Shown piece by piece: positions 43,321 through 61,835 of a DNA stretch of 64,000 nt. The stretch comes from a virus. The stretch is taken from positions 1 to 64,000 of the IMG/VR virus record IMGVR_UViG_3300024346_000017. The stretch is one strand, 5' to 3'. The notes under the pieces were generated by a model. It made no database searches. It was not told where the DNA came from and saw only the letters and a list, made by a program, of their open reading frames with translations. The translations under genes were made by a program, and so were the position numbers. The stretch's first letter is position 1; the number at the start of each line of letters is the position of its first letter.

Positions 43321-43322
43321 TC

Positions 43323-43781
43323 ATGTCTAGACAAATGCTAGTCCCACTAAGACTTCTAGCTTTGTCAACAGACCCAGTTTTTGGACAAGTTGGCGAAATT
43401 TATATAAACACAGTAACTAAAAATTTACGTGTTCATAATGGAACTACTTGGATAGAGCTTACCCCACCAAGTACAGACCCAACACCATTTTATATGCACA
43501 CCCACACATTTGATGGAGATGTACATACAATTGATATACAAAATCAAATTGATTTTAAATCATTATCTAATCCAAATACACCAGGCAAAGTATTGCCAGA
43601 GATTATAGGTTATGACGGTGGAAATCCTTCAGATAATCTAGCAACACCGTCATTTGTAGAAGAAAGTTTATTTGACGCTGGTTTATTTGATGGCACACAA
43701 GAAGAAACAACAGAAACAGGAACAGGTGGCGGAGGTTCCGAAGATTTCGAAGCACCATCACTTGATGGAGGAGGCTCATAA
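43323..43781 (+). CDS. Virion structural protein
   Basis: GEIYIN...NGTTW; DGG tail. Confidence 0.65.
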   Translation: MSRQMLVPLRLLALSTDPVFGQVGEIYINTVTKNLRVHNGTTWIELTPPSTDPTPFYMHTHTFDGDVHTIDIQNQIDFKSLSNPNTPGKVLPEIIGYDGGNPSDNLATPSFVEESLFDAGLFDGTQEETTETGTGGGGSEDFEAPSLDGGGS

Positions 43782-45427: not shown

Positions 45428-45436
45428 GGAGACCAA

Positions 45437-47821
45437 ATGCCGCTAAATATTTTTGACGGTTCCAGCTGGAATCCTTTAAAAAAAGTACAGATTCATGATG
45501 GTACATCCTGGAATGAATCAAAAGCGGCATATATATGGGACGGATCAGAATGGAAATCACTTCTCGATTTAAAACCAAAAAACACTGAGTTACCAGCTTT
45601 ATCTTTACAAGAAGGAGTTTATCTTTATGCTGCCCAAGAAACAGTTTCTGTTTCTAATGGAATATGGGAAAACTCTCCAACATCATTTAAGTATCAATGG
45701 CAAAAATCCCCATTTAGCTCATCTAGTTACAACTGGTCTGATATAACAGGCAAGACATCAAATACCTTGCTTTTAGATGAAGACGAATGGAGCTCATCAA
45801 GAAACCTTAAATATGTTGGATATGTAGTAAGGTGTAAGGTAACTGCTACAAATGCTGCTGGAGATAATGATCCTGCAGTCTACACTATTCCTAGCCCAAT
45901 AATAGCTCCACAAAAACTTTCCGTTTTATCCGCTTCGGTTATTTCAAACGGAGTAGTAAAAATTGATTGGCAAAAGCCTATTGGAGCAAATGATTTTTAT
46001 ATACAGTATCAAGGACCAGAAGTTGCTTTTACAGAAACACAATCGCTTGGAGATGTTGATACTTTAACAATAGATACTGGAAGTTCTGGTGGAACTCTTG
46101 GAATCTTAATAAATCCAAAAAATAATTCAAACGCATCTGGAATGGCTCTTACTGGGCTTGGCAAAAATGCATCAATTAGTGATCTAAAACCAAATAAGCC
46201 TTACGTTACAACAACTATGGAATCATTCTCATGGGGAGGAAGGTTAAGATGGACCAACACTTTAATAAATCAAACATCGTGGGTAATATATAACAATGGG
46301 CAACTATACGCAAGTTCGTTTTTAAATGATCCGTCCGCTACCTCATTTGATATAGATAGGTTTGGAGAAGGAGGCTCAACCTTCGGATCATTTACAATTA
46401 CGGTTACTGGAACAGCTCCAAGATTTACAGAAACATCCTGGCCTTCAACACCACCGCTTTCTATAGTATATCCCGCAGTTCCTTTGCCAGTTAATCAAGT
46501 AGCTCCTACAGTATCTACTTCAAATGGAAGAGTATTTGCCTCAACTACTGGAACATGGTCAAACACATCTTCTATATATAGCTATCTTTATGAATGGTTT
46601 GCTAATGGTTCTCCAATAGACAGTGCATTTATTACTGAGTCAGATACTATAAATCTTTATGACACCACACAGTATGATAATATGTCAATAACTTCTGCTG
46701 TATATGTTTTAACAACAGACTTAAGAACAACTTCAGCAACAGCAAGCAGTAACTCTGCCCAATCAAATCCAGTTCCTCCCACAACATATACAATTCCAAA
46801 TTTGATTGGAACATATAATCCCTCTGATACAACTAACTATAATATTTCAAATGGCTCAACACTTGGCACTACTGATTATACAAAAGAGGGACAAGTTTAC
46901 ATGCAGTCTCCAGGAGCTGGTGCATCTGTAAGCACATCTCCAAAACCAACAATTACTGTATACAGATACGTTTACGAAGCTGCTCCTCAATACACTTATT
47001 ATGCAGGATATTCTGCATGTAATAACAATAATGGTGCCCCTTATATCCAAGAGCCATCTGTTAGCGGTCCGTATACAGGATCATCAATACCACAAGATAT
47101 TTCTACGGGCCCAAGCACATACAGAGAAGTTATTAGATACAGGACAACATCCGCAGCAGCTTTATCCGCAGCAGCACAAGCAGGATGTGAAACACCAGTC
47201 TTTGCACCACCAGCTTTTGCACCAGCACAATTTACAATTCCAAATTTAGTTGGATCATATAATCCTTCTAGTACATCAAGCTACAATATTTCAGTAGGTG
47301 CAGTAACTTCAACTGCAGACTATACAAAAGAGGGAATTGTTGCATCTCAATCTCCTACAGGAGGAACATCTGTAAATGCTTCTCCTATTCCTACAATTAC
47401 TGTATCAAAGTATTCTTATGTAGCTCCGCCGCCTGAACCAACTGTAACTTATTATCAGGGGTATTCTGCTTGCAATAACTTCTCTGGAGTTTATGCCTCT
47501 GCTCCATCTGTTAGTGGTCCATATACAGCATCATCAATGCCAACAGATGTTATTACTGGGCCAAGCTCAAACAGAGAAGTTCTTAAGTATAGATCAACAT
47601 CTGAAGCAGCTTTATCCGCAGCAGCACAAGCAGGATGTGAAACACCTTCCTTCGCACCACCAGTCTTCTTCGCACCACCAGTCTTCTTCGCACCACCAGT
47701 CTTCTTCGCACCACCAGTCTTCTTCGCACCACCAGTCTTCTTCGCACCACCAGTCTTCTTCGCACCACCAGTCTTCTTCGCACCACCAACATTTGGTTCT
47801 CGTTTCATAAGATCATATTGA
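45437..47821 (+). CDS. Virion surface protein: Ig/FN3-like domains, two PASTA-like repeats, (FFAPPV)n tail and FGSRFIRSY end
   Basis: FKYQWQ...RCKVTATN; TIPNL[I/V]G...QSP..G.SV x2; repeat tail. Confidence 0.75.
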   Translation: MPLNIFDGSSWNPLKKVQIHDGTSWNESKAAYIWDGSEWKSLLDLKPKNTELPALSLQEGVYLYAAQETVSVSNGIWENSPTSFKYQWQKSPFSSSSYNWSDITGKTSNTLLLDEDEWSSSRNLKYVGYVVRCKVTATNAAGDNDPAVYTIPSPIIAPQKLSVLSASVISNGVVKIDWQKPIGANDFYIQYQGPEVAFTETQSLGDVDTLTIDTGSSGGTLGILINPKNNSNASGMALTGLGKNASISDLKPNKPYVTTTMESFSWGGRLRWTNTLINQTSWVIYNNGQLYASSFLNDPSATSFDIDRFGEGGSTFGSFTITVTGTAPRFTETSWPSTPPLSIVYPAVPLPVNQVAPTVSTSNGRVFASTTGTWSNTSSIYSYLYEWFANGSPIDSAFITESDTINLYDTTQYDNMSITSAVYVLTTDLRTTSATASSNSAQSNPVPPTTYTIPNLIGTYNPSDTTNYNISNGSTLGTTDYTKEGQVYMQSPGAGASVSTSPKPTITVYRYVYEAAPQYTYYAGYSACNNNNGAPYIQEPSVSGPYTGSSIPQDISTGPSTYREVIRYRTTSAAALSAAAQAGCETPVFAPPAFAPAQFTIPNLVGSYNPSSTSSYNISVGAVTSTADYTKEGIVASQSPTGGTSVNASPIPTITVSKYSYVAPPPEPTVTYYQGYSACNNFSGVYASAPSVSGPYTASSMPTDVITGPSSNREVLKYRSTSEAALSAAAQAGCETPSFAPPVFFAPPVFFAPPVFFAPPVFFAPPVFFAPPVFFAPPVFFAPPTFGSRFIRSY
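47651..47791 (+). repeat. 18-bp tandem repeat encoding FFAPPV (about 8 units)
   Basis: TTCTTCGCACCACCAGTC repeated perfectly. Confidence 0.97.
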
Positions 47822-47831
47822 TGTATAATAT

Positions 47832-48029
47832 ATGAAAGAGACAAAACCATGGGACCTTTTAAATCCAAGCACTGAATTTGCTTCAGAATCTGTTCAAGAA
47901 GAAAGATATGTAATATGTCAAGCATGTCCAGAATTTATCGGATTGACTAAGCAATGCAGAAAATGCGGATGTTTAATGAAGTTAAAAACAAAAATTTTAG
48001 CATCAGAATGCCCATTACAAAAATGGTAA
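47832..48029 (+). CDS. Small Cys-rich protein (CxxC...CxxCGC...CP..KW)
   Basis: ERYVICQACPEF...QCRKCGCLM...ECPLQKW. Confidence 0.75.
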   Translation: MKETKPWDLLNPSTEFASESVQEERYVICQACPEFIGLTKQCRKCGCLMKLKTKILASECPLQKW

Positions 48030-48100
48030 ATTAGGATGGTTTATAAAGTTTTATAAGATATAATTAACTAAGTAACACGATTCACACAAGGGGGTAGCCA

Positions 48101-48658
48101 ATGGCCACCAGTTATCCAAATGCAATAGATCAACTTATTAATCCAAGCGGATCAGATGCATTATCAGCACCATCACATTCAGAACAGCATTCAAATGCAA
48201 ATGATGCAATAGAAGCATTACAAACAAAAGTTGGAACAGACGGATCTACAGATACAAATTCTATAACATATAAAATAAACGACATAGTTTCTATATTGGG
48301 AGATCTAGACAATAGCACAGACGCCGTCGTAGAACTTCTGGGACTAGAAGGCAACAATGATCTTTCTGTTTATGGAATTGAAAATCCAACTAACGTAGAC
48401 TCATTTGCAAAAGCTACTTGGAGAACAGTCAATTATAATCTTCAGGTAACAAAGGGAACAGATGTCTACACATCAGAAATCCTCGCTTCACATGATGGAA
48501 CAAACATAATGGTTTCAGAGTCAAACATCATCTCAAACTCAAACACAAGTCTATTTACTTATACCTTTGAAGAAAACTCAGGTATAATTAGTTTAAGAAT
48601 CACCCCTGTTTCTGGTTCTATTTCAGTTAGATTTTCAAGAACAGCGCTTAAAGCATAA
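48101..48658 (+). CDS. Virion structural protein
   Basis: HSEQHSNANDAIEALQTKVG; C-terminal domain related to that of 48688..50250. Confidence 0.65.
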   Translation: MATSYPNAIDQLINPSGSDALSAPSHSEQHSNANDAIEALQTKVGTDGSTDTNSITYKINDIVSILGDLDNSTDAVVELLGLEGNNDLSVYGIENPTNVDSFAKATWRTVNYNLQVTKGTDVYTSEILASHDGTNIMVSESNIISNSNTSLFTYTFEENSGIISLRITPVSGSISVRFSRTALKA

Positions 48659-48687
48659 CAAAAAAAGCAGTAAGAGGAGTCATATAA

Positions 48688-50250
48688 ATGGCAACAGTAA
48701 CAAAAAACTTTAGAATTAAATCTGGCCTCATTGTTGAAGGTACTTCGGGTACGATCAATGGCCAAAACATCCTTACAGAAACAGGTGGAGATAGTTATAT
48801 TCTCAATCTTGTTGGTGGCGCTACTCTTGTAAAATCAGTAGAAGCAACCCAACTTGAAGTAAGCGGAGCTGGAAAACTATCCGTAAAATCTGGCGTATTT
48901 GATGCAGCAGGTGCAGCAGCAGCAGCACAGTCTGCAGCAGAAGCAACTGCATCAGCAGATGCAAGCGCAAAAGCTAGCGCAGCACAATCAGCCGCAACAA
49001 CTGCAGCAGCAACTGACGCTACTACAAAGGTAGCCGCAGAAGCAGCCCTAAGAGTATCAGGCGATGCAGCTTCAGTTTCAACTGCAGCAGCTGACGCAAC
49101 ATCAAAGGCAGCAACTGCTAAGTCAGAAGCAATTTCTGCAGCAGCAACAGATGCAACAGACAAGGTAGCTGCAGAAGCTGCCCTCAGAGTATCAGGCGAC
49201 GCAGCTTCAGTTTCAACTGCAGCAGCTGACGCAACATCAAAGGCTAATGCAGCGCAAACAGCCGCTATCTCTGCAGCAGCAGCAGATGCTACTACAAAGG
49301 CAGACGCAGCAAAGGCTGGAGCAGAAGCAACAGCAGCAGCAGCACTAACATCTGCAATCTCAACAGAGGTTTCAAACCGTAATACAGCAATTGGAGCAGC
49401 AGTAGATTCATTAGTAGACGGTGCACCAGCACTTCTTAATACATTAAATGAATTGGCAGCAGCAATCAATGATGATGCTAACTACACAACAACACTAACA
49501 TCAGCACTTGCTCTCAAAGCTAACTCAGCAGATGTTACAACAGCAATTGCAACCGCTAAATCAGAATCAGCTACAGATGCAACAGACAAGGTAGCCGCAG
49601 AAGCAGCCCTAAGAGTATCAGGCGATGCAGCTTCAGTTTCAACTGCAGCAGCAGATGCAACATCTAAGGCTAACGCAGCTCAAGCAGCAGCTATTGCAGC
49701 AGCAGAAACTGACGCTACAACCAAAGCAGGCGCAGCTCAAGCAGCAGCTATTGCAGCAGCAGCAACTGACGCTACAACCAAAGCAGGCGCAGCTCAAGCA
49801 GCAGCTATTGCAGCAGCAGCAACTGACGCTACTACAAAGGCTAACGCAGCTCAAGCAGCAGCGGAAGCAACTGCAGCAGCAGCCAATACAGCACAGCAAG
49901 CTGGAACAACATCTTTCACAGCATTAAATGTTAACGACCAGGCTAAGCAAATTGCAGCCTCATCAACATCACTTGGATCAGTTATAGTAACTGCTTATGA
50001 GTGGCCAAAGGCAGACTACCGTTCAGGTAAGTTCCTTGTTAAGATTGATAATGCAACACACAATGAAATATCAGAAATTCTAGTAACACTAGACTCATCA
50101 GACAACGTAGCAATTACAGAATATGCAATTGTCGGAACTAATGGATCAAGAGGAACTATTACAGCAGATGTATCAGGATCAAATGTAAGAATAAGAGTAA
50201 ATCCAGTAAATGATTCAACAATCAAAGTATCTGGAACACTTGTTAAATAA
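48688..50250 (+). CDS. Ala-rich coiled-coil fibre protein with internal repeats
   Basis: KVAAEAALRVSGDAASVSTAAADATSKA x3; 60-bp tandem repeats; APALLNTLNELAAAINDD. Confidence 0.8.
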   Translation: MATVTKNFRIKSGLIVEGTSGTINGQNILTETGGDSYILNLVGGATLVKSVEATQLEVSGAGKLSVKSGVFDAAGAAAAAQSAAEATASADASAKASAAQSAATTAAATDATTKVAAEAALRVSGDAASVSTAAADATSKAATAKSEAISAAATDATDKVAAEAALRVSGDAASVSTAAADATSKANAAQTAAISAAAADATTKADAAKAGAEATAAAALTSAISTEVSNRNTAIGAAVDSLVDGAPALLNTLNELAAAINDDANYTTTLTSALALKANSADVTTAIATAKSESATDATDKVAAEAALRVSGDAASVSTAAADATSKANAAQAAAIAAAETDATTKAGAAQAAAIAAAATDATTKAGAAQAAAIAAAATDATTKANAAQAAAEATAAAANTAQQAGTTSFTALNVNDQAKQIAASSTSLGSVIVTAYEWPKADYRSGKFLVKIDNATHNEISEILVTLDSSDNVAITEYAIVGTNGSRGTITADVSGSNVRIRVNPVNDSTIKVSGTLVK

Positions 50251-50261
50251 TTAAATAAAGG

Positions 50262-50290
50262 TTTTGGGGGATTCCTTAAAAATCCCCCAC
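50262..50290 (+). terminator. Hairpin or terminator after the fibre gene
   Basis: TGGGGGATT-CCTTAA-AATCCCCCA. Confidence 0.6.
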
Positions 50291-50320
50291 AATAAACAAT
50301 TAGGGGATATGTGAACTTAA

Positions 50321-50683
50321 ATGGCAACAGTAGATAAGAACTTTAAAGTAAAGAATGGGTTAAATGTAGCAGGAACTGCAACGTTTGATTCTAATATCGT
50401 ATTAGGAACAGCCCCAATATCTTTTGATACAACAACAAAAAGGCTACAAGTCCAGATTGATGGATCTTGGCAGCCTATAGCTTTGTATTCAGAAATTCCA
50501 AATGAAAACACTATGCTTTCATTTATGGATGTAGGTTTGGCGATTGATTACAATGGCCAGCCAACATATATTATTCAGGCAAATGGAGTTACACCATCAG
50601 GAACAAGCAAGTATGTTTCTGGAGGAGACGCTTCAACTACTGAGTTTGGAATGACCTTTGATTCAGGAGCATTAGTAGCATGA
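50321..50683 (+). CDS. Virion structural protein (N-terminus similar to 48688)
   Basis: MATVDKNFKVKNGL vs MATVTKNFRIKSGL. Confidence 0.7.
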   Translation: MATVDKNFKVKNGLNVAGTATFDSNIVLGTAPISFDTTTKRLQVQIDGSWQPIALYSEIPNENTMLSFMDVGLAIDYNGQPTYIIQANGVTPSGTSKYVSGGDASTTEFGMTFDSGALVA

Positions 50684-50744
50684 TGCTTAATTGTAATGGT
50701 TTAAATGCTATAATTTCAATATATCAAATAAAAGGGGTGGCATA

Positions 50745-53225
50745 ATGTCAACAGTAAGAATTCAAGTACGTAGAGGTTTAGCTTCAGAATGGACCGCAGC
50801 AAATCCAGTATTGGCTGCAGGTGAAATGGGTGTTGAAACAAACACTAATTTATTTAAGTTTGGTAACGGGTCTTCTACATGGACTGCCCTTGCATATGCC
50901 AACAACTCAGATGTAGCAATTGGTGAAATTTCCCAAGACGCTATCAACACAGCCCTTACAATGGGTGCAGGTTTAACAAAGACTTATAACGATGGAGCAA
51001 ATACAATAACTATAACTGTTGATACAGATGTAGTTTCAACAAGAGCATTTGCTACAACAGCAGCAGGGACTGCACAGACTGCAGCAGAAGCAACCGCAGC
51101 AGCAGATGCAAGCACAAAGGCTTCAGCAGCACAAGCTGCAGCAATTGCAGCAGCTTCAGCAGATGCAAGCGCAAAGGCTTCAGCAACTCTTGCTTCAGCA
51201 ACCGCAGCAGCAGCAGCATATACAGACTCTGCAGTAAATGGAGTAAATAACTCTCTTTCAGATTACCTAGAGGTAACAGAAAGAGGAGCAATGAATGGAG
51301 TTGCTTCCCTAGACGCAAATGTCAAGGTTCCACAAGCACAGCTTCCTTTAAATACTTTAACAACAAATATTAATACATCAGGAACAGTATCTGCAGCAAC
51401 AGTAATGGCAGAAGATGTAACTTCAAGCGGTGTAGTAACAGCAAACAATGTAACTATTAGTGGAAACCTAACTGTAAATGGAACAACCACATCAGTAAAT
51501 TCAACAAGCGTTACAATTGATGACCCAATGATTTATATTGGCGATGGCAATCAGTCAAACTCACTTGACCTTGGAGTTGTAGCAGCATTTAATGATGGCA
51601 CATACCAGCATGCAGGTCTTGTTCGTGATGCTTCAGATCAAGGAATCTGGAAACTATTCTCAGGAGTAACATCAGAGCCTGGCACAACAGTAGATTTCAC
51701 TACATATACAAAAGATAAGCTAGAACTAGGAACTTTGTATGCAGATGCAGCAAGAATTGGATCAGTTACAAATCTAGAAATTCAGCACCTAGGAGGAGTT
51801 ACTTCACCAATCCAGGCACAGCTTAATACCAAATTGGCTAGCGTACCTGATGATTCTGTTGGAACAGCTAAGATTCAAGCAGCTTCAGTAACTACTGCAA
51901 AAATTGCAGATGGTGCAATTGATACATCTAAAATTGCAGATGTTGCAGTAAGTACTGCAAAAATTGCAGATGGTGCAATTTTAACTGCAAAGCTTGCAGA
52001 TGCTTCTGTAACTTCAGCAAAAATTCCAGCAAACACAATTTCTCAATCACATCTAAATGATGACGCAGTAGGAACTGCAGAAATTGTTGCACTTGCAGTA
52101 ACTACCGAAAAGATTGCAGATGCTGCAGTAAGTACTGCAAAAATTGCAAATTCAGCAGTTACTACTTTAAAAATTGAAGATCTAGCAATCACAAATGAAA
52201 AGATTGCAACAGCAGCAGGAATAGCTCAGTCAAAGATTTCTGGATTAACTGAAGCCCTAGCTACAAAAGCAACAATTGATTCACCAACATTTACTGGTGC
52301 AGTTGTTCTTCCAGCAACAACAACAATCGGTCTAGTTGATGCAACTGAAATGGGATACTTAAATGGTGTTACATCTTCACTTCAAACACAGCTAACAGCC
52401 CTTGGAACAGCAGATTCAACACACGCAGCATTAACTGAAAATGTTCACGGCATTGCAAATACTGCAGCACTTGCAACAATGGCTTACGCTGATACAGCAG
52501 AAGCAGACGCAATTACAGCAGCAGGTACAGCAGCAGATTCAAAGATTGCAACTGCAGTAGCAGCACTTACAAAGTCTTCAGTAGGACTTGCAAATGTTGA
52601 TAATACAGCAGATGCATCAAAGCCAGTCTCTACAGCACAGGCTTCAGCAATCGCAACTGCTAAGTCAGAAGCAATTGCAGATGCAACTTCACAAGTAAAT
52701 GCATTACTAACAGGAGCTCCAGCAGCACTCAATACACTTGATGAGCTTGCAGCAGCACTCGGAGATGATGCAAACTTTGCAAGCACAGTTACTACTAGCT
52801 TAGCAGCTAAAGCACCAATTGCTTCACCAACATTTACTGGAACAGTAACAGTTGCAGCAGCAGGAGTAGCGTTTGCAGATAAGACTCAGACAAAGGCAGG
52901 CGTACCTTCTCTCACATCAATTGCCACAGCAGTTTCAGCAAGCACAACACTAGATGCGCTTGGAACAGATGCAGCAGTAAGAGATTCACTAGTTCCTCTA
53001 TCAGGAGCAGTAAACGTCAGCTTTGAAGCAACAGGAAATGCAAAGTATGAAATCGGTTCTTCAATCAGCTTCTACCAGTCAGCAGGAACTGGTGCTAATA
53101 TAACTGGATCTGGAGTTACAATTCTTGCGACACCAGGTGCAACATTAAGAACAACAAGTTCATCAGTAACAGCCACTAAGGTTGCAGCAACAACATGGTT
53201 GTTAGCTGGAGACCTAAGAGCATAA
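50745..53225 (+). CDS. Long tail fibre protein (Mtd-N-like domain; VTTAKIADGA decapeptide repeats)
   Basis: IQVRRG...W...NPVLAAGEMGVET; TAKIAD repeats; APAALNTLDELAAALGDD; TWLLAGDL end. Confidence 0.82.
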   Translation: MSTVRIQVRRGLASEWTAANPVLAAGEMGVETNTNLFKFGNGSSTWTALAYANNSDVAIGEISQDAINTALTMGAGLTKTYNDGANTITITVDTDVVSTRAFATTAAGTAQTAAEATAAADASTKASAAQAAAIAAASADASAKASATLASATAAAAAYTDSAVNGVNNSLSDYLEVTERGAMNGVASLDANVKVPQAQLPLNTLTTNINTSGTVSAATVMAEDVTSSGVVTANNVTISGNLTVNGTTTSVNSTSVTIDDPMIYIGDGNQSNSLDLGVVAAFNDGTYQHAGLVRDASDQGIWKLFSGVTSEPGTTVDFTTYTKDKLELGTLYADAARIGSVTNLEIQHLGGVTSPIQAQLNTKLASVPDDSVGTAKIQAASVTTAKIADGAIDTSKIADVAVSTAKIADGAILTAKLADASVTSAKIPANTISQSHLNDDAVGTAEIVALAVTTEKIADAAVSTAKIANSAVTTLKIEDLAITNEKIATAAGIAQSKISGLTEALATKATIDSPTFTGAVVLPATTTIGLVDATEMGYLNGVTSSLQTQLTALGTADSTHAALTENVHGIANTAALATMAYADTAEADAITAAGTAADSKIATAVAALTKSSVGLANVDNTADASKPVSTAQASAIATAKSEAIADATSQVNALLTGAPAALNTLDELAAALGDDANFASTVTTSLAAKAPIASPTFTGTVTVAAAGVAFADKTQTKAGVPSLTSIATAVSASTTLDALGTDAAVRDSLVPLSGAVNVSFEATGNAKYEIGSSISFYQSAGTGANITGSGVTILATPGATLRTTSSSVTATKVAATTWLLAGDLRA

Positions 53226-53245
53226 TTGGAAAATAGGAGAATAAA

Positions 53246-54079
53246 ATGTCAAAAAATATAGGTAATAAAGCCGCCGCACAAGACAACTTCATTGGACCAA
53301 ATGCTCCAACTGGCTTAACTGCAACAAATGTTGGAGCTAACAGAGCATTTAACGATGGGCGTATTGATCTAGCATGGGTTGCACCAACTGGAGCAAATAC
53401 TCCAACATCATATAAGATTATGCGTGGTGGAGCAGAAATTGCAACAGTTTCTCACCCTACAGTAACTTATTCAAATACTGGACTAACATCAGCCACACTT
53501 TACTCTTATACAGTAAGAGCAGCAGATGCTTATGGAACTTCAGCCGATTCAAACGCTGCAACAGCAACAGCAACAACAGTTCCTTCTGCTCCAACAAGTG
53601 CATCTGCAACAGCAGGAGTTAATGCAAACACAGTTCAGTGGGCAGCGCCAGCAACTGGTGGAACTGCAATCACAAACTACTATGTTGTTGGAAATGATGC
53701 AACAACTGGAAATACTACTGGTTTATCTGTATCAATTGCAGATTCTGCAAATACATCTCAATACTATAACGTATATGCAGACAATGCTAATGGAAGATCA
53801 GCTGCATCAAATAACACTAATACTGTTACTACACTTGCACCTACTTTCTTCGCACCACCGTTTTTCCCACCATTCTTTCCACCAAGCTTCTTCGCCCCAC
53901 CAGGGTTCTTTGCCCCACCAAGCTTCTTTGCACCGCCAGTGTTCTTTGCCCCACCAGGGTTCTTTGCACCGCCAGTGTTCTTTGCCCCACCAGGGTTCTT
54001 TGCACCGCCAGTGTTCTTTGCGCCACCAAGCTTCTTTGCGCCACCAACATTTGGCTCACGTTTTATCAGATCGTATTAA
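53246..54079 (+). CDS. Two-FN3 virion protein with (FFAPPx)n tail and FGSRFIRSY end
   Basis: PNAPTGLTAT...LAW...YSYTVRA; VPSAPT...VQWAAP...GG..ITNY. Confidence 0.82.
   Translation: MSKNIGNKAAAQDNFIGPNAPTGLTATNVGANRAFNDGRIDLAWVAPTGANTPTSYKIMRGGAEIATVSHPTVTYSNTGLTSATLYSYTVRAADAYGTSADSNAATATATTVPSAPTSASATAGVNANTVQWAAPATGGTAITNYYVVGNDATTGNTTGLSVSIADSANTSQYYNVYADNANGRSAASNNTNTVTTLAPTFFAPPFFPPFFPPSFFAPPGFFAPPSFFAPPVFFAPPGFFAPPVFFAPPGFFAPPVFFAPPSFFAPPTFGSRFIRSY
53846..54049 (+). repeat. Degenerate 18-bp repeats encoding FFAPP[G/S/V/T] (10 FFAPP plus 2 FFPP)
   Basis: Synonymously diverged units. Confidence 0.95.
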
Positions 54080-54090
54080 TAATATACAAA

Positions 54091-54120
54091 ACAATAGCAA
54101 GGGGCAACCCTTGCTATTGT
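54091..54120 (+). terminator. Hairpin with a 13-bp perfect stem and GCAA tetraloop
   Basis: ACAATAGCAAGGG-GCAA-CCCTTGCTATTGT. Confidence 0.8.
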
Positions 54121-54151
54121 GCTATATAAATATAAATGATACAATTTGTAT

Positions 54152-54856
54152 ATGACAAATATAAATGAATCTTTTAGCTTTTCTTCTAAAGAACAGCTTT
54201 TCCCAGGCGTATGGGTTTACAGAAATGTAATTAAGAACGACCTTGATATTATTAATAGGCTCAATGAAATTGGCGAATCTGCCATAAGCGAGAACGATAC
54301 AAGATACGCATGGACGTTTGGCTTTGTTGGGTATAGCGAAAAAAGACCATCATACAGAGACTGTGAAGACATTAAAGTCGGAGAAATTAAAAACCCTAGA
54401 TCTAAAACAGAGCAATTAGTTTCTAGTTTGTGGACAGATTTAAAAAAATCACAGTCCCCAGCTGTTGAAGACTATTGCGGAATGTATAATGTAAAAATGG
54501 ATTACTGGGAAGTAATGAACTGCATCAAATATGGAAAGGGACAACATTTCCAAGAGCATGCAGACCATGGGTTCTCTTATAGCGCTACAGTTTCATTAGT
54601 TGCATACGTAAACGACGACTATGAAGGCGGAAACTTATATTTCCCTAAGCTTAATCTAGATATTAAGCCAAAAGCTGGAGACCTATATATATTCCCATCA
54701 ACATATTTATTTTCACACAGGGCAATGCCAGTTGATTCTGGAATGAAGGTTTCAATTGTAACTATGCTAGATTATAATGATCATGCTCATAGACAAGAGT
54801 TTATGCAGATGAGAGCTAACTGGTTAGAGCAAGACGCACAAGCTGGCAAGAACTAA
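54152..54856 (+). CDS. 2OG-Fe(II) oxygenase (P4H-like); leaderless start 54152
   Basis: HAD...YVNDDYEGG...SHRAMPV...K; TGaTACAAT 6 nt upstream. Confidence 0.9.
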   Translation: MTNINESFSFSSKEQLFPGVWVYRNVIKNDLDIINRLNEIGESAISENDTRYAWTFGFVGYSEKRPSYRDCEDIKVGEIKNPRSKTEQLVSSLWTDLKKSQSPAVEDYCGMYNVKMDYWEVMNCIKYGKGQHFQEHADHGFSYSATVSLVAYVNDDYEGGNLYFPKLNLDIKPKAGDLYIFPSTYLFSHRAMPVDSGMKVSIVTMLDYNDHAHRQEFMQMRANWLEQDAQAGKN

Positions 54857-54857
54857 A

Positions 54858-55580
54858 ATGTATAATATAGAGGCATACTTTGTTAGAGAAGGGTTTGGCC
54901 AAGTTAGCCCTCTATCAGTAAAGAGAGACTGGATGGATCAAACATTTGACGCACATGCCTATAAGTGTTTCCCAGTCAGCCTAACTAATCAATTGGGTTG
55001 GGGTATATCTTTTCCAGAAGACATATCATTTATTTGGGATGGAATTACAGATAGCAGTCCAGATCATGTAAAAATATTGTCTGGAGAAAAATATGCATAT
55101 GCTGGTAGAGCAAATGCAACAATCAGCTTTAATACTGGAATAATGTTTAAGACTGACGAAAACTCAACTTTAATGTCTATGCCTGTACCCAATCTTTTTA
55201 TTGATGGCGCAACCCCTTTTACTACATTAATCAGTACATCTTTTTATAGAGGAGAGCTACCAGCAGCCTGGATGATAACAAAAGCAAATGAAGTTATAAC
55301 CATTAAAGCTGGAACCCCAGTAATATCAGTAATGCCAATAAATTTAGATTCAATTAATAACTCAGAGATGCAGTTTAAAGAATTATCATCTCTCCCAGAG
55401 CCTTTGTTTGACTCTACAGAATATTCTAATGTTATATATGACTTAAATAGAACCGCAACATGGTCCAATTTTTATAGAGATGCAGTAGATCATTTAAAGA
55501 GAAAAATTGGATCTCACCAAGTAAAGGCAATAAGACTAAAAACAAATAATGATATAATGAATAAAGGAGGAAGCAAATGA
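54858..55580 (+). CDS. DUF6065-like protein
   Basis: RDWMD....HAYKCFPVSLTNQLGW...PN...IKAGTPV. Confidence 0.7.
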   Translation: MYNIEAYFVREGFGQVSPLSVKRDWMDQTFDAHAYKCFPVSLTNQLGWGISFPEDISFIWDGITDSSPDHVKILSGEKYAYAGRANATISFNTGIMFKTDENSTLMSMPVPNLFIDGATPFTTLISTSFYRGELPAAWMITKANEVITIKAGTPVISVMPINLDSINNSEMQFKELSSLPEPLFDSTEYSNVIYDLNRTATWSNFYRDAVDHLKRKIGSHQVKAIRLKTNNDIMNKGGSK

Positions 55581-56251
55581 AACCATCAAACGACTGGGGC
55601 AATAATGCTCCTATATCTATAACCCCCTCTGGCTTTTTTGGAAACTCTTCTTCCAATATTATAGAAATTAAAGACTTCCTTTCTTTGGCGGAAAGAGAAA
55701 GACTTATGGACTTTGCTTTAAACAATAAAATTTGGGATATAACAGAAACTCATCGTGATGCAGACGGACTAGTTTTATATGATCATAAAATTTGGGAAGA
55801 CAGAGTATGTACTTATAACTCTCTTATGGCATCCGATCCAGGCATACTTGAGCTTATCTACAGTATGATCGATAGATTAAAAATAGAAGTAGATGCATTT
55901 TTTAGTGTAGATGCAAAAGAAACTGGTCCAGCAATTGTTCGTTGGCCTGTTGGCGCAAGACAAGAACCCCATGCAGATAAAGAATTTCATGCTGGTCCAG
56001 AAAAAGGAAGGGCTAACGATTTCCCATGGTATGATTTAGCTGGATTATTTTATTTTAACGATGACTATGAAGGAGGAGAACTTTATTTCCCTCAGCATGG
56101 CATTGAGTTTAAACCAGTTGCAGGAGCAGCATATTTTTTCCCAGGCGATATGAATTATACGCATGGAGTCCGCCCAGTAAAGTCTGGGAATAGGTTTACA
56201 TCACCATTTTTTTGGACTATAAAAAAACATACAGGAGAAAAACAGCCATGA
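55577..56251 (+). CDS. 2OG-Fe(II) oxygenase (P4H-like)
   Basis: HAD...YFNDDYEGGELYF...HGVRPV.SG.R. Confidence 0.92.
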   Translation: MKPSNDWGNNAPISITPSGFFGNSSSNIIEIKDFLSLAERERLMDFALNNKIWDITETHRDADGLVLYDHKIWEDRVCTYNSLMASDPGILELIYSMIDRLKIEVDAFFSVDAKETGPAIVRWPVGARQEPHADKEFHAGPEKGRANDFPWYDLAGLFYFNDDYEGGELYFPQHGIEFKPVAGAAYFFPGDMNYTHGVRPVKSGNRFTSPFFWTIKKHTGEKQP

Positions 56252-57066
56252 GTAAATTAGAATATGTAGAGCTTTATCCAAAAGTAGATATCTATAGAAA
56301 TGTTTTAAAAGACCCAAACCAGCTATATGCAGTAATGAATGAATCTGAAAAGACATCAGAAGGAAAGTACTTTTTAAAAACATGGGATCCGTGGGCGCAC
56401 TTTGGAACATACACACAAAAAAAGGACCCAAGAGAAGTTTCTGCTGAAATTCAAAAAGAAGAGATGTTTATTAAAGAAAAACAATTTGTTGAAGAAGTTG
56501 AAGAAGCTTACAACAAGGTTGTATTAGATTATGTAGAAAGACACGGCATTGATTTGCCAGACGGATGGCATTTTAGTGGTTGCTCCTATTCAAAATATCA
56601 CGCAAACATTGATACGCTAAATAATAGCATGACAATGCAATATCATACAGACCATATAACCTCTCAAAAAGATATGCCTGGAGATAAGTTTTCTATAACA
56701 TGTACCATGTACATTAATGATGATTATGAAGGCGGAGACATTGAGTTTTATGTTGATGGAAATCTTATTAATCACAAGCCTCAAGCAGGAGACATTTTGG
56801 TTTTTCCATCTACAGAGCCATATTTTCATGGAGTAAAAACAATTAACACTAATGAAAAATTCTTTGTCAGAAACTTTATTATGACTCCACACAATGGCAC
56901 AGAAGAATGGCTTGCGAATCAAAGAAAATTTGGTGCTTACAGATGGGCAAAAATGGAACAAGAAAGAATAGACCACGACGATAAAAGAAATATGGTTTAT
57001 TTTGCAGACGGCAAGCCTATATCATACGAAGACTATATGAGCACAAACAAGGGCAAAGGTAAATAA
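56248..57066 (+). CDS. 2OG-Fe(II) oxygenase (P4H-like); ORF track start 56212
   Basis: HTD...YINDDYEGG...HGV...K; AGGAG RBS. Confidence 0.9.
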   Translation: MSKLEYVELYPKVDIYRNVLKDPNQLYAVMNESEKTSEGKYFLKTWDPWAHFGTYTQKKDPREVSAEIQKEEMFIKEKQFVEEVEEAYNKVVLDYVERHGIDLPDGWHFSGCSYSKYHANIDTLNNSMTMQYHTDHITSQKDMPGDKFSITCTMYINDDYEGGDIEFYVDGNLINHKPQAGDILVFPSTEPYFHGVKTINTNEKFFVRNFIMTPHNGTEEWLANQRKFGAYRWAKMEQERIDHDDKRNMVYFADGKPISYEDYMSTNKGKGK

Positions 57067-57067
57067 C

Positions 57068-57820
57068 ATGGAAAGAAATATGATTATAACTAGACACAAG
57101 CCAGATATCGTACAGTATGATAATTTTTTAACTCCAGATGAGTGTAAATCTATCATAGATGTTTTGGCCATCAAAATGGAAAAGGATCAACTTAGATGGA
57201 TGCCAATTTCATTTTATGAATCATATTCATCTGGAACCCCAGAGCTAAATGATCCAGATACAATTGCTTCTGGTCTTCCAGGAGATTTTTTTCAAGACTT
57301 AAGACAGAGAGTTATAAACGCAACTGCAGATATGGCTGGTAAATCTCCAGAACAAATGTCTCAAATAAGCTGGCACTCTCAAAGATGGGCACCAGGAGCA
57401 TTTGCAAATATGCATTCTGATAACACATCTAATGATGGTGTATCTGGTGCATTTACTAGAAGCAGATATGCAACATTCCTTTATTTAAATGACGACTTTG
57501 AAGATGGTGTTTTAAACTTTAAACATGGGCTTACAATTGTTCCTAAGACGGGAACCCTTGTAACTTTTGCTGGAGGATTTGATAACATGCATGAGGTTAC
57601 AACTGTCAAAAAGTCTATTCGATATACCCTTGGTTCATTTTGGGACGATAGAGAAGAAAGCGATTATCCGCAAGAAGTAAGAGATGCTTGGGCGGAAGAG
57701 CTTGCAAAAGTCAGAGCAATTCAAAAAGATGAGGCAGCAGAATGGGAAGATTATAGAAAAAGAGGAGTAAGAATAACTCCACGAGGAGAACAATACCCAG
57801 CTTCTGAAGTGGAAGGCTAA
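57068..57820 (+). CDS. 2OG-Fe(II) oxygenase (P4H-like)
   Basis: DNFLTPDEC...HSD...YLNDDFEDG...HEV...R. Confidence 0.92.
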   Translation: MERNMIITRHKPDIVQYDNFLTPDECKSIIDVLAIKMEKDQLRWMPISFYESYSSGTPELNDPDTIASGLPGDFFQDLRQRVINATADMAGKSPEQMSQISWHSQRWAPGAFANMHSDNTSNDGVSGAFTRSRYATFLYLNDDFEDGVLNFKHGLTIVPKTGTLVTFAGGFDNMHEVTTVKKSIRYTLGSFWDDREESDYPQEVRDAWAEELAKVRAIQKDEAAEWEDYRKRGVRITPRGEQYPASEVEG

Positions 57821-57821
57821 T

Positions 57822-58472
57822 ATGCAAAACGATGTTGATTTTAAACAATTTACAATGTTTAACGTACACGCACTAGACCCAAATATTTGGTATTGGGAAA
57901 ATGTTCTTAGCTATCCAAAAGAATTAAATAGCTTTATAGAAGAAATAGATTCTATTCCAGAATCATATTCAAGAATTTCAAAATGGGAAAACTGGTCTGC
58001 AAGTAATGATGAGTCTTTAATTTATGGCGCAACAAAAAATATATTTAGATCTAAGCTAAAAGAAACTACTGGCTCTGACGCAGTTGATAAAAAAACATTG
58101 TACATTGCAAACAGCTTTATCATGGCAGCTGAAATGTGCTCAGATAGGTATTTTGCGAGTCACGGATTAGATAAAAATAATTACAATTTAGAAATAAATC
58201 AAATTCCAATTAAAAAATGGAATCAAGGACAATCAATGGGCCCACACTTTGATGGTCAAGATGGAAATAAAGACTTAGCCTTCTCTCTTGTAACTTATAT
58301 AAATGACGACTACGAAGGTGGAGAAATTCATTTTCCAAATCAAAATGTTACGTTAAAGCCAGCAGCTGGAAGCTTAATAATGTTTCCATCTCAAGAGCCA
58401 TATATCCACGAAGTAAAACCTATTATTTCTGGAACAAGATACATGAGTCCAGCACACGTATATATTAAATAG
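57822..58472 (+). CDS. 2OG-Fe(II) oxygenase (P4H-like)
   Basis: HFD...YINDDYEGG...HEVKP...R. Confidence 0.92.
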   Translation: MQNDVDFKQFTMFNVHALDPNIWYWENVLSYPKELNSFIEEIDSIPESYSRISKWENWSASNDESLIYGATKNIFRSKLKETTGSDAVDKKTLYIANSFIMAAEMCSDRYFASHGLDKNNYNLEINQIPIKKWNQGQSMGPHFDGQDGNKDLAFSLVTYINDDYEGGEIHFPNQNVTLKPAAGSLIMFPSQEPYIHEVKPIISGTRYMSPAHVYIK

Positions 58473-58492
58473 ATAGGTGGTATAATAAAAAA

Positions 58493-59605
58493 ATGAGCAC
58501 AACAGGCAAGGGCTTTAGATACCCAGTATACACAGACACCCCAGACGTACCCAGAGACCTCGGATACCTTGCTGCTGACGTAGATGCCTACCTAGATGCT
58601 CATCCAGGCCCACAAGGGCCTTCAGGAACCCTATCAGTAGGCTCTGTAACTACAGTTAGCGCTTCTACTCCAGCATCTGTTGTTAATGTTGGAACAGCAT
58701 CAGCAGCTATATTAAATCTAACTTTACCAAGAGGTATTGATGGAATTATTGGTGGTCCAGGCCCTTCTAATGTATTAAGCATTGGAACAGTAGAGCAAGG
58801 CGGATCTGCCTCAGCAACAATTACTGGCACATCACCAACACAGACATTAAATTTAGTTTTGCCACAAGGGCCCGCTGGCCCAACTGGACCGCAGGGGCCG
58901 CAGGGCCCAACTACTTTAGCAGTAGGAACTACCACCACTAGTTTGCCTGGAACAAATGCATCAGTAACAAATACTGGAACTTCAACAGCAGCAGTATTTG
59001 CATTTACAATTCCAAGAGGCGCAACTGGAGCAACTGGAGCAACAGGCCCGCAAGGAATTCCTGGATCAAGCGCAACAATAGATCCAGTACCAACTACAAT
59101 ATCTTTAAATATCCCAACTACGGCAGGGTATGGAGTAAATTCAAACTGGTACCCACTTGCAAATAATTTATACTCTATTGGACAACCAATCGATGCTCCA
59201 TCAGGAGTAACTTCAAATAGATTTTGGAAAACAATATATTCTAATACTGGAACAATAAATACATCTGATCAAAGATTAAAAACAGATGTTATTAATTCTG
59301 CTCTAGGACTTGATTTTATAAATAATTTAAATCCAGTAAGCTATAAGTTTATTGAAGGCGGAAAAGAAGTCGTTGATGGAGATTTAGTTTCTATACCTGG
59401 ATCAAGAACGCATTACGGACTTATTGCACAAGAAGTAAAAGAGGTTTTAGATGCATCTGGCGTAGAAGATTTTGCTGGATGGGTTAAGATGGATGTATCA
59501 CAAGAAGATTCTATGCAAGGCCTAAGATACGATCAATTCATTGCACCACTTATTAAAGCAGTACAAGAGCTTACAGCGAGAGTTAAAGCCCTAGAAGAGA
59601 TTTAA
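58493..59605 (+). CDS. Collagen-like fibre with C-terminal intramolecular chaperone (peptidase S74)
   Basis: GPQ/GAT triplets; TSDQRLK...GLIAQEV...LRYDQFIAPLIKAVQEL. Confidence 0.9.
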   Translation: MSTTGKGFRYPVYTDTPDVPRDLGYLAADVDAYLDAHPGPQGPSGTLSVGSVTTVSASTPASVVNVGTASAAILNLTLPRGIDGIIGGPGPSNVLSIGTVEQGGSASATITGTSPTQTLNLVLPQGPAGPTGPQGPQGPTTLAVGTTTTSLPGTNASVTNTGTSTAAVFAFTIPRGATGATGATGPQGIPGSSATIDPVPTTISLNIPTTAGYGVNSNWYPLANNLYSIGQPIDAPSGVTSNRFWKTIYSNTGTINTSDQRLKTDVINSALGLDFINNLNPVSYKFIEGGKEVVDGDLVSIPGSRTHYGLIAQEVKEVLDASGVEDFAGWVKMDVSQEDSMQGLRYDQFIAPLIKAVQELTARVKALEEI

Positions 59606-59608
59606 GAC

Positions 59609-61411
59609 ATGTCATATAAATATACTGTCTTAAAAGATAACCCAGTTGCATTTTTCTTATTGGATGAAGTTCGTTCTGGCGAAGCTGGTGTATACAGTAA
59701 TTTAACTACATTATATCCAACATATCAAGCTTTAAAAGATAACGGTGTTTCATATGCCGCAGTAAGCGGGCTGCCAATAATTGATTACACTGGAAACTCC
59801 ATGGAGGGGTATGCAATTAATACTTCAGCCATGGAAGTTCTTCCTATTATTGGGGCGGGGGTAAGAGGAACAGAGATAAATGAAGATGCACAGATAAGCC
59901 TAAAAGCCCTAGGACTTGGTATGAATAGAAATCCAGACGGTCCATTCGCATTTGAAATATGGTTTAGTCCAGCTAAAGATGACAACTCAGAATATCTTAT
60001 TATGGGAGATGCAGAAAATTCAATTGGCCTATTCTATAAAAATGAAAACATTATTTTTAAATGTAGTCCAACACAGATGGTTTGGCATAAGATTACAAAA
60101 AATAAAGCCATGCATGTTGTAGGTATGTTTTCTAAAGATACAATTTCACTTTATGTTGATGGCAAAATTGTTTCTGAAAGTCCAGTTGCCGATAGCTTTA
60201 AATTTAATAATACAAGCTTAAACCTATCCTTGGGACCAGCCAACGCAGGCAAAAAATTTATTGTTGATTCAGCAGCAATTTATGCCTATGAGCTAGAAGA
60301 AGCAAAAATATTAAATCATTATCTGTCTGGATACAAAGAGACAAAGTACTCACAAATTGTTTATTCAAATAATGGAATTCTTTTTTCATTAAACTCGGCC
60401 TCAGTAAGACCAGACATTTCATATAGGTATCCTGGAATAAAAGCACTAGAAGAGCTTGCCTCTGGAGATGCCTATTATAATTCAGAGTATAGCAGAATTG
60501 AGTTTGAAGAAACAGATGCCGTGGAAACAAAAACATTTTCTTTTCAAGAAAGATTGTATGTATCAAATCCAGAAGATATTGTTTCTTCTAGAATTTGCTA
60601 TGGGCAGGATGTAGACAATATTGTGGTTGAAATACAAATCCCAAATCAGCCATGGGTAGTTTGCAAAAATAATTCTCCAATGCCATACTACAACAAAAAC
60701 CAGAACTCAGGAAGCCCAATATTAGATATAAGGGTAACAATGACGACACAGGATTCATCCTTCGACCTACCTTACTTTGATAAGCTAGAAATTGATATGT
60801 ATTCAAATAAAGATTTTTATGCAGATAATTCTGGATCAAAAATATACTCAGCATACGACTATGAAGTAGGACAATATAATTACCCAGTAAGAATGCAAAA
60901 TAAATACAACGGACTTTCAATGTATTCTGGCCATGGGTTTTCTGTAGATCTTTCTATTCAGCCAAGAACAATAGAGATGTTTTTTACTCCAAGGGGTGGA
61001 CAAAATGTATTATTTTCTTCAGCATCCTCATCAATTAAATGGGCGGCAAACGGAGTAATAACAAAAGCTGGCATTTCTGCTATATACGTAAATGGTATAA
61101 ATAGGACATCAGAGACTAATGTATCCACATTCTTGCTAAATGATGTTGCCCACCATATTGTAATTGTATTAAGTCAGTCAGCCCTAAATATTAAGTTTAA
61201 TCAAAATCAATTAGATACGGAGTATGGAACTTCAAATCTATACAATAATATAGCTTTTTATGAGAAGGCATTTACCTCCGCAGAAGCAATAAATAACTAC
61301 AGGCTCTACTGCTCAGATAACTCAAAGGTTGTTACTGACCCAGGAGTGACTATATCTGAAAGTGCCCAAGGTCAGGACGGAACCTCATACTTCATAAGGT
61401 TATTTGACTAG
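59609..61411 (+). CDS. LamG/concanavalin-A-like minor tail protein
   Basis: LKDNPVAFFLLDE; FAFEIWF; HVVG...SLYVDG; AIY..EL. Confidence 0.72.
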   Translation: MSYKYTVLKDNPVAFFLLDEVRSGEAGVYSNLTTLYPTYQALKDNGVSYAAVSGLPIIDYTGNSMEGYAINTSAMEVLPIIGAGVRGTEINEDAQISLKALGLGMNRNPDGPFAFEIWFSPAKDDNSEYLIMGDAENSIGLFYKNENIIFKCSPTQMVWHKITKNKAMHVVGMFSKDTISLYVDGKIVSESPVADSFKFNNTSLNLSLGPANAGKKFIVDSAAIYAYELEEAKILNHYLSGYKETKYSQIVYSNNGILFSLNSASVRPDISYRYPGIKALEELASGDAYYNSEYSRIEFEETDAVETKTFSFQERLYVSNPEDIVSSRICYGQDVDNIVVEIQIPNQPWVVCKNNSPMPYYNKNQNSGSPILDIRVTMTTQDSSFDLPYFDKLEIDMYSNKDFYADNSGSKIYSAYDYEVGQYNYPVRMQNKYNGLSMYSGHGFSVDLSIQPRTIEMFFTPRGGQNVLFSSASSSIKWAANGVITKAGISAIYVNGINRTSETNVSTFLLNDVAHHIVIVLSQSALNIKFNQNQLDTEYGTSNLYNNIAFYEKAFTSAEAINNYRLYCSDNSKVVTDPGVTISESAQGQDGTSYFIRLFD

Positions 61412-61496: not shown

Positions 61497-61835
61497 ATGG
61501 AAATATTAAACCAAAAAAGCGAAGTTGTTGAAGAAACACGCCTAGGCATATACGTATGGGAAATGCCAGATGGGCGATGGATCGGAGACGATGATGGCAA
61601 TTTTCTTTCAATAACATCTGTAAAAGGAAATAGATCTAGAATGAACGTTCTAGCTGATGCCGTAAGACACTATGGAATATATGAAGGAAAACCAAAGTTT
61701 CTGTCTGGAAGAAGAAAGATTGATGACGAAGAGTTTGAGTATCAAAACCAAAGACTTAAATGGGGACTTACACCAGACCCTCTTGATATCGGAGAATATA
61801 AAGACCAGGTTTTACGAGGGGGATCAGTAACATGA
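61497..61835 (+). CDS. Hypothetical protein preceding the portal
   Basis: ORF overlapping the portal start. Confidence 0.8.
   Translation: MEILNQKSEVVEETRLGIYVWEMPDGRWIGDDDGNFLSITSVKGNRSRMNVLADAVRHYGIYEGKPKFLSGRRKIDDEEFEYQNQRLKWGLTPDPLDIGEYKDQVLRGGSVT

Follow-up and report, generated by a model that had tools for sequence, protein, structure and literature searches.

Proline-phenylalanine stalks with interchangeable ends beside a cluster of prolyl-hydroxylase-like oxygenases in a freshwater phage genome

The IMG/VR virus record IMGVR_UViG_3300024346_000017 is a genome of 113,108 bp, complete according to CheckV, and its first 64 kb (64,000 nucleotides, the window below) were analysed. Two proteins encoded there, carriers 1 and 2, end in a proline-phenylalanine repeat (the stalk) followed by the same nine residues, FGSRFIRSY (the cap). 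Directly downstream of carrier 2, which contains FN3 domains, lies a battery of five oxygenases of the prolyl 4-hydroxylase (P4H)-like, 2-oxoglutarate (2OG)- and Fe(II)-dependent type, together with a gene of the family DUF6065. In the explanation that is tentatively preferred, and that as a whole falls a little short of an even chance, the stalk is a substrate of the oxygenases and the cap is an interchangeable end and not a tag for the enzymes. The region would then make up the fibre/adhesin module of a freshwater phage, about 113 kb in size, that is abundant and uncultured. A sequence-only reading of the same DNA had taken the C-terminal peptide for a conserved recognition or follower element of the kind known from ribosomally synthesised and post-translationally modified peptides (RiPPs). 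The check on co-occurrence in related phages that this reading proposed came out differently for its two parts: the repeat goes with the battery in 83 loci, and the tag does not. The most frequent replacement of the tip in relatives is a Hint domain.

Repeat type and oxygenase battery in related loci

IMG/VR was queried with both carriers, the DUF6065 protein and two distant carriers, and about 270 loci were obtained, from metagenomes of lakes and other fresh waters. In the window's lineage, essentially every locus, down to 45% carrier identity, has the same order of fibre genes, fn3 carrier, oxygenase 1, DUF6065 gene and oxygenases 2-5. Wherever a related locus extends far enough, the fn3 carrier immediately precedes the oxygenase cluster. 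Stalks of fn3 carriers were classed by their Pro-Pro content, and the oxygenases were counted up to the next boundary gene; the interval was complete in 83 distinct loci. Pro-Pro stalks were accompanied by at least five oxygenases in 77 of 77 loci and by DUF6065 in 76 of the 77. Single-Pro aromatic stalks (FGFxP-like) had zero to two oxygenases in six of six loci, with DUF6065 in none of the six. No discordant locus was found among the 83. A genome with a YSFxP-type stalk, outside the 83-locus count, had no oxygenases. The stalk type is common to both carriers of a genome, which lie about 5 kb apart. These counts show the association of Pro-Pro repeats with the oxygenase battery, and to judge from the gene comparison they support in part a link between the repeat and the enzymes.

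The single-Pro genomes were placed in a tree of the neighbouring marker p185. Eight of ten single-Pro rows fall into one deep clade, and the other two (L219/L233) form one nested lineage. The contigs of the deep clade are about 70 kb where they are long enough to judge, and their gene order differs. Four independent transitions read from the fn3 domain tree are reduced to two by the p185 tree. In the L219/L233 lineage, the repeat type changed and oxygenases 1, 3 and 4 and DUF6065 were lost together. The interval in the single-Pro genomes is not empty: 6.6-8.4 kb of it is taken up by other genes, among them one for a class II ribonucleotide reductase. The genes that stand in place of the cluster in L219 include an Asp/Asn beta-hydroxylase-type gene and DUF6065-like paralogues, some of them with homologues elsewhere in the window. 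Unassigned genes of L219 were considered as hidden oxygenases, and three of them showed no similarity to the oxygenase alignment in profile-profile comparison.

A sister lineage of smaller phages (L178, L194, L197 and L212, contigs of about 70 kb) has the same fibre genes, Hint-capped fn3 carriers and single-Pro aromatic stalks. Between fn3 carrier and portal, its members encode a 1200-aa protein of no assigned family as well as a class II ribonucleotide reductase.

Ends of the carriers

The cap occupies 47792..47818 in carrier 1 and 54050..54076 in carrier 2, and its nine residues are C-terminal in both. Five of the nine cap codons differ between the two genes, all synonymously, and seven of the last 15 codons differ. 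Nineteen distinct genome types with both carriers were compared. Five of them have an identical short tag on both proteins and five have the same Hint subtype on both; the remaining types have mostly related ends, or a larger protein without the repeat. Peptide-identical tags within one genome differ at 2-9 of 15 codons, and in three genome types 7-9 of the 15 differ without any amino-acid change. Since peptide-identical tips differ synonymously at up to nine of 15 codons, the cap peptide is under purifying selection, as the earlier reading had claimed. A change of the penultimate residue from Ser to Ala is present in both genes of the same genomes and is encoded by different codons. The comparison of sequences within genomes shows that the ends of the two carriers evolve in concert. 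Occasional gene conversion between the carriers via the repeat DNA is likely to contribute. The two ends probably have a requirement in common, which could be the same docking site, the same fate or mutual contact.

An unrelated small predicted membrane protein of 72 aa (8231-8449) ends in FGSRFK, with the FGSRF match at 8429-8443, and so has five residues as in the cap; this is probably due to chance.

The ends after the repeat in relatives include Cys-Hint domains of several subtypes, Ser-Hint domains, R-x-Y-type peptides, other short ends and Cys-rich ends. Many of the relatives' carriers are about 160 residues longer, with a Cys or Ser directly after the last repeat and then a domain that can be aligned across subtypes. 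This domain gives weak Pfam matches to Intein_splicing and Hint_2. The model of one such domain (pLDDT 88.6) had as its top Foldseek matches (E 5e-7) the Tetrahymena BIL2 domain 6TMM, inteins, a BIL domain of C. thermocellum and Hedgehog 1AT0, and this model shows the predicted Hint fold of the relatives' terminal domain. A profile search of 1.84 billion cluster representatives found 2770 Hint members at E<=1e-3, nearly always at the extreme C-terminus. Among the 150 top representatives, position 1 is Cys (90) or Ser (26) in all 116 that cover it, which argues that acyl-shift chemistry is in use. Block B has Ser or Thr in 146 of the 150, and its His position is occupied by His in 59, Gln in 62 and Glu in 22. 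At the end of the domain, the penultimate residue is His in 101 and the terminal one Asn in 98 of these representatives. Upstream of the Hint domains stand short aromatic/Pro repeats of several kinds or plain Pro-rich linkers; this variety suggests that an adhesin domain, a low-complexity stalk and a Hint cap form a general architecture. Another class of cap is seen in L224, L236, L243, L244, L263 and L268, where FFPFFPP-type stalks carry small Cys-rich ends.

The Hint domain has been lost repeatedly, and decayed or truncated forms were found in L013, L066 and L035. A phage ending in GFWD has a close relative with GFWG followed by a Cys-Hint domain. In the fn3 gene tree, the clade with the window's tag is sister to a Ser-Hint clade with support of 100/99. 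The tag Ser and the [FL]-I-R-[ST] core align with the first strand of the Ser-type Hint domain, so that the Ser after FG sits at its Ser1 position, with no domain after it. R-x-Y-type short ends recur in several lineages. With moderate confidence, the window's tag can be regarded as the remnant of a lost Hint domain. The relatives' Hint profile, run against six frames of the complete 113-kb genome, found no Hint domain (best E 0.48).

The oxygenase cluster is kept across all types of cap, with 5-9 oxygenases beside Hint-capped carriers and 5-7 beside carriers without Hint. The role of the C-terminal tag as a conserved recognition element therefore found no support, the cluster being kept across all end types and the enzymes lacking a recognition domain.

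Carriers and stalks

The carriers with their parts, the five oxygenases, the DUF6065 and DUF6171 genes and the collagen-like fibre are all encoded on the + strand. Carrier 1 (45437..47821, 794 aa) has a conserved N-terminal half, and after it come two PASTA-like/Cys-bounded modules in tandem (46790-47197 and 47234-47647), with a short FAPP-type linker (47198-47233) between them. Its best-matching part in relatives is residues 1-450. The likeness to PASTA domains noticed in the sequence-only reading was seen again, at 22.3 bits against a Pfam cut-off of 23.2, that is, below the threshold. The stalk of carrier 1 (47651..47791) comprises eight units, one FAPPV and seven FFAPPx, and in its repeat DNA (47650-47788) an 18-bp unit recurs 7.7 times with 100% identity.

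Carrier 2 (53246..54079, 277 aa) consists of a short N-terminus, two FN3 domains and the stalk with its cap. Pfam calls a single fn3 domain in the window protein, at residues 20-106; the second of the two FN3 domains previously described is recognised only via homologues. The PHROG matches of carrier 2 are confined to the FN3 part. Its stalk (53846..54049) has 68 residues in FFAPPx and FFPP units, and the copies in the repeat DNA (53879-54046) are 82-91% alike. The two carriers have nothing in common but their ends. That both end in an FFAPPx-type run and FGSRFIRSY was confirmed from the open reading frames, and a six-frame scan of the whole 113,108-bp genome found such tails nowhere outside carriers 1 and 2.

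The number of stalk units varies among relatives from about 5 to 21. This spread and the differing identity of the repeat DNA in the two genes point to rapid expansion and contraction, presumably by slippage. Since PT-rich or acidic-Pro linkers occupy the homologous position in relatives and a FAPP linker lies within carrier 1, the stalk seems to behave as an extended linker. Ser and Thr make up 7% of the Pro-Pro stalks versus 14% of the single-Pro stalks, which is a weak hint. Structure prediction for the two tails together gave a score of 0.00 with an uncertain fold of the partners and carries no weight either way on tail-to-tail binding.

The hairpin noted earlier between carrier 2 and the gene of oxygenase 1 is real. 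It is a perfect 13-bp hairpin with a GCAA loop (54091-54120) and no T-run on the + strand, and it may act in factor-independent termination of the actinobacterial kind or as a processing site.

Oxygenases, DUF6065 and neighbouring genes

Pfam confirmed the content of the region downstream of carrier 2 as first described, with five P4H-like oxygenases, DUF6065 and a collagen-like fibre. Oxygenase 1 (54146..54856, with an alternative start at ATG 54152) matches PF13640 (2OG-FeII_Oxy_3) with E 4.5e-13. It is followed by the DUF6065 gene (54858..55580) and by the PF13640 proteins oxygenase 2 (55577..56251), oxygenase 3 (56212..57066, likely start ATG 56248), oxygenase 4 (57068..57820) and oxygenase 5 (57822..58472). 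The five score 33-50 bits against a cut-off of 27. H138, D140 and H191 in the numbering of oxygenase 1 are invariant across them, and a Lys or Arg follows about ten residues past the distal His; the HxD...H triad and the basic residue for 2-oxoglutarate are intact in all five, the triad being conserved in oxygenases 2, 3 and 4 as well as in 1 and 5. By every sequence criterion applied, the five belong to the P4H-like 2OG-Fe(II) family. The best solved relatives of oxygenase 1 are the prolyl 4-hydroxylase of B. anthracis 3ITQ/5HV0 (E 3e-7). Oxygenase 5 matched the PKHD hydroxylase 3DKQ, the B. anthracis P4H and the PBCV-1 P4H 5C5T among PDB sequences. Pfam found the catalytic domain only and no peptide-recognition domain in the five proteins. 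In the phage collection, oxygenase 1 matched only cyanophage oxygenases, at 25-30% identity.

DUF6065 (Pfam E 1.6e-28) was considered as a sixth oxygenase and is ruled out as such by its predicted fold, a dUTPase-like beta-barrel. The model has a pLDDT of 91.4. VIA-align gave Z 10.8-8.4 to 13 entries, 12 of them dUTPases and one a viral dUTPase-fold protein; at Z >=5 there were 23 chains, nearly all dUTPases, dCTP deaminases or viral proteins of dUTPase fold. Foldseek matched it to dUTPases at E 4e-4, and phmmer against all PDB sequences gave no dUTPase at E up to 1. On the modelled structure, DUF6065 is a protein of dUTPase-like fold that travels with the oxygenase battery. A gene at 16200-16832 may be a second DUF6065-like paralogue in the window, judging by its identity of 26-34% to two genes of the L219 cluster; the closer of these (34%) has a sub-threshold DUF6065 match and the other none in Pfam.

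The collagen-like tail fibre (58493..59605; PHROG tail fibre/spike) has short Gly-Pro-X runs in its translation and a C-terminal self-cleaving chaperone of the Peptidase_S74 type (PF13884, E 6.8e-15 at residues 258-322). Only some members of the clade have this fibre; whole sub-clades lack it and keep every oxygenase, by which it is ruled out as a necessary oxygenase substrate. The small Cys-rich protein noted after carrier 1 is DUF6171 (47832..48029) by Pfam. Its gene is always next after carrier 1 in relatives, whatever end carrier 1 has, and the synteny of relatives gave no link between this protein and the tag.

Proposed explanation and its alternatives

The carriers would be adhesin-type proteins with FN3 or PASTA-like domains, each ending in an extended, very hydrophobic Pro-Phe stalk and a short cap. 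The five P4H-like oxygenases would hydroxylate the Pro-Pro units of the stalk and perhaps other residues, as the enzyme family and the gene association suggest. Hydroxylation may stiffen or stabilise a polyproline-II rod and add hydroxyls to a greasy stalk that has almost none. The ancestral and commonest cap would be a Hint autoprocessing domain whose nucleophile, a Cys or Ser, immediately follows the last repeat; the domain would detach itself via a (thio)ester and leave an activated or free C-terminus. The window's lineage would have lost Hint, and a short basic-aromatic peptide resembling the first beta-strand of a Ser-type Hint domain would remain, held identical on both proteins by purifying selection and occasional gene conversion. 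The caps are probably identical because a common site has to accept both stalk ends, or because a common fate awaits them. A location of both carriers on the virion, and a binding partner of the cap, are presumed here. The most far-reaching form of the proposal, a family of freshwater actinophages whose adhesin stalks are polyhydroxylated on Pro-Pro (perhaps also Phe) and whose ends are activated or fixed by Hint, replaced by the nine-residue peptide in the window, is a possibility that is rather unlikely to hold in full.

Several observations weigh against the proposed role of the oxygenases. The p185 tree leaves only two independent contrasts between the repeat types. A sign test on the four pairs of the fn3 tree has p 0.125, and domain exchange has probably inflated their number. 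L219 has not simply lost the cluster and has about nine other small genes in its place, and single-Pro genomes retain a few oxygenases, which sometimes lie upstream in the locus. The battery consists of five ancient paralogues with about 25% identity, which exceeds the apparent need of a simple hexapeptide. Multi-copy 2OG oxygenases of unexplained role are common in aquatic phages, and at least two further oxygenase genes of the window (10525-11676 and 11669-12328) lie far from the tails. For the history of the cap, the homology of tag and Hint comprises a four-residue core and a tree position only, and recombination within the repeat could give the tail a history different from that of the N-terminal domain.

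These points leave considerable room, at a doubtful level of probability, for a battery unrelated to the tails, with other fibre or host proteins, small molecules or nucleic acids as its targets. The clade-wide adjacency could be an inherited gene order with conserved synteny as its sole cause, the contrasts are as few as stated, and cyanophages and other aquatic phages have several such oxygenases with no assigned substrate and no such tails; the additional oxygenases in the window fit as well. It is harder to reconcile with the lack of any discordant locus among the 83, with the joint change of repeat type and oxygenases 1, 3 and 4 and DUF6065 in L219/L233, and with the same battery-associated repeat type in carriers about 5 kb apart. 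The earlier claim that the oxygenases act on the Pro-rich repeats keeps the support of synteny and of the 83-locus association, and its weakness is that it depends on two independent contrasts. The same association of Pro-Pro stalks and battery is predicted if the oxygenases modify the host translation apparatus (elongation factors or ribosomal proteins) for the translation of Pro-Pro-rich stalks, proteins that are known targets of related prolyl and arginyl hydroxylases; PF13640 relatives are among the hydroxylases acting on translation factors and ribosomal proteins. However, this mechanism is without phage precedent, the best solved relatives of oxygenase 1 are collagen-type peptidyl-prolyl hydroxylases and nothing in the locus points to the ribosome, which makes it quite improbable.

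For the cap, recruitment of the oxygenases to a repeated core by a RiPP-like follower tag was prompted by its identity on two unrelated proteins, by its purifying selection and by the enzymes adjoining one of the carriers. This is very improbable, as the same cluster is kept in the same order with Hint, Cys-rich or quite different short ends, the oxygenases have no recognition domain by Pfam, and a self-removing Hint cap is hard to square with a docking role. A functionless leftover of Hint loss, whose two copies are alike only by gene conversion across the repeat DNA, is improbable to a lesser degree. The repeated loss of Hint with its decayed forms agrees with it, as do genomes in which the tags differ at only 2-3 codons, as after recent conversion. 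It does not account for the three genome types with 7-9 synonymous differences in 15 codons, for the parallel Ser-to-Ala change through different codons in both genes, or for the recurrence of R-x-Y-type ends across lineages. Least probable of all, and hardly credible, is that the tag is the N-terminal fragment of a split Hint whose remainder ligates or processes the stalk end in trans. The tag resembles the first strand of a Ser-type Hint and stops at about the end of that strand, and split inteins with N-fragments of about 11 residues exist. However, no other Hint piece was found in the six frames of the 113-kb genome with the relatives' profile, so that an arrangement with a phage-encoded partner was rejected (best match as given above). 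The stalk as oxygenase substrate with an interchangeable end remains the preferred, tentative explanation.

Relation to known systems

The use of viral prolyl 4-hydroxylases "remains cryptic" according to a review of Baltic Sea viral genes (PMC9301287). The nearest precedent, by analogy, is the chlorella virus P4H with Pro-rich repeat proteins: PBCV-1 is cited there for a viral P4H-like enzyme together with viral Pro-rich repeat proteins (Eriksson et al. 1999, as cited in PMC9301287; 5C5T), that is, an enzyme with presumed repeat substrates as here. Unlike PBCV-1, the window has five old paralogues and a dUTPase-fold protein, and hydroxylation would be a prediction; its repeats are aromatic (FFAPPx) and C-terminal on adhesin-type proteins, and the host is bacterial. 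The collagen-like P4H of B. anthracis (3ITQ, 5HV0) shares its catalytic triad with oxygenase 1, at low identity and over the catalytic core only. Its substrate is a Gly-Pro-Pro collagen-like peptide, whereas the collagen-like fibre of the window is missing from many relatives that keep the enzymes.

Relatives of the carriers end in a Hint-fold domain with an N-terminal Cys or Ser, a layout like that of Hedgehog, and Hedgehog/Hog and BIL domains (6TMM; C. thermocellum 2LWY) are the nearest precedents for these caps, whose activity is predicted. Hedgehog's terminal domain releases itself by way of a thioester, and BUBL proteins transfer the thioester to a lysine on a second protein. The phage Hint domains differ in following aromatic/Pro stalks on FN3- or adhesin-like proteins and in having, in many cases, Gln or Glu for the block-B His. 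The window itself has no Hint domain and only the nine-residue peptide resembling the first strand. Peptidase_S74 chaperones of fibres and spikes, one of which is carried by the neighbouring collagen-like fibre, are likewise C-terminal domains removed after doing their job; they are serine-lysine proteases of a different fold, in contrast to the Hint acyl shift, and the carriers of the window have neither.

Decoration proteins of the T4 Hoc type are small proteins with Ig-like/FN3 domains whose C-terminal part fixes them to the particle. In contrast, the C-terminal part of the window's carriers, which are presumed virion proteins, is a low-complexity Pro-Phe stalk with a tiny cap and no folded capsid-binding domain. 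RiPP leader and follower systems have a repeated core beside modifying enzymes and a conserved terminal peptide, as does the window. Here, however, the terminal peptide varies where the enzymes are conserved, the carriers are large and folded, and a recognition domain is missing. The window belongs to neither the Hint nor the RiPP class. In literature searches, those on phage hydroxylases and Hint domains included, no account turned up of such tails, of phage fibre proteins capped by a terminal Hint domain, of Hint domains placed after aromatic/Pro stalks on adhesin-like proteins or of an oxygenase cluster like this one.

Genome setting

The carriers and oxygenases are situated in a fibre-like structural gene block (42121-61411) just upstream of the portal gene, and neighbouring genes have PHROG matches to tail fibre, tail spike and head decoration families. 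The portal protein (61832-63415) has about 57% identity to portals of large Streptomyces phages, and the G+C content of the DNA is only 35-43%. Owing to both features, a low-GC freshwater actinobacterium is the likely host. In the collection of cultured phages, the region had no megablast match, matches of the fn3 protein were confined to FN3 pieces from unrelated phages and DUF6065 had no match; no cultured phage of the searched collection has the module.

Other genes of the window were noted as well. A class II (B12-dependent) ribonucleotide reductase gene (39011-40945) lies just upstream of the fibre module; its homologue in the 70-kb relatives is the one placed between fn3 carrier and portal. 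Farther upstream of the structural module are a Peptidase_S8 (subtilase-family protease; 4453-5625) and a luciferase-like monooxygenase (7447-8241). An open reading frame at 9720-10541 begins with the P-loop-like HVPKTAGKS and is reminiscent of sulfotransferases, with no Pfam match at E 0.001. The gene at 10525-11676 is a fusion of an Asp/Asn beta-hydroxylase-type domain and PF13640, and a homologue of it is present in the enzyme cluster of L219; 11669-12328 encodes a single PF13640 protein.

Significance

Genes for 2OG-Fe(II) oxygenases without an assigned substrate abound in the genomes of aquatic phages. Here, a candidate substrate is encoded in the immediate neighbourhood, and the phage group concerned is represented by hundreds of contigs from lake metagenomes. 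The group offers a natural comparison between Pro-Pro stalks with the battery and single-Pro stalks with few oxygenases. A family of terminal Hint domains with 2770 representatives has been uncovered on phage adhesin-like proteins. If these domains are active, Hedgehog-type autoprocessing, possibly with thioester-driven ligation, would take part in phage particle assembly. If the most far-reaching form of the proposal is true, phage particle proteins would for the first time be seen to undergo hydroxylation by a multi-enzyme pathway and end-processing by Hint, and the stalk would be a polyhydroxylated rod in the manner of plant extensins or mussel foot proteins.

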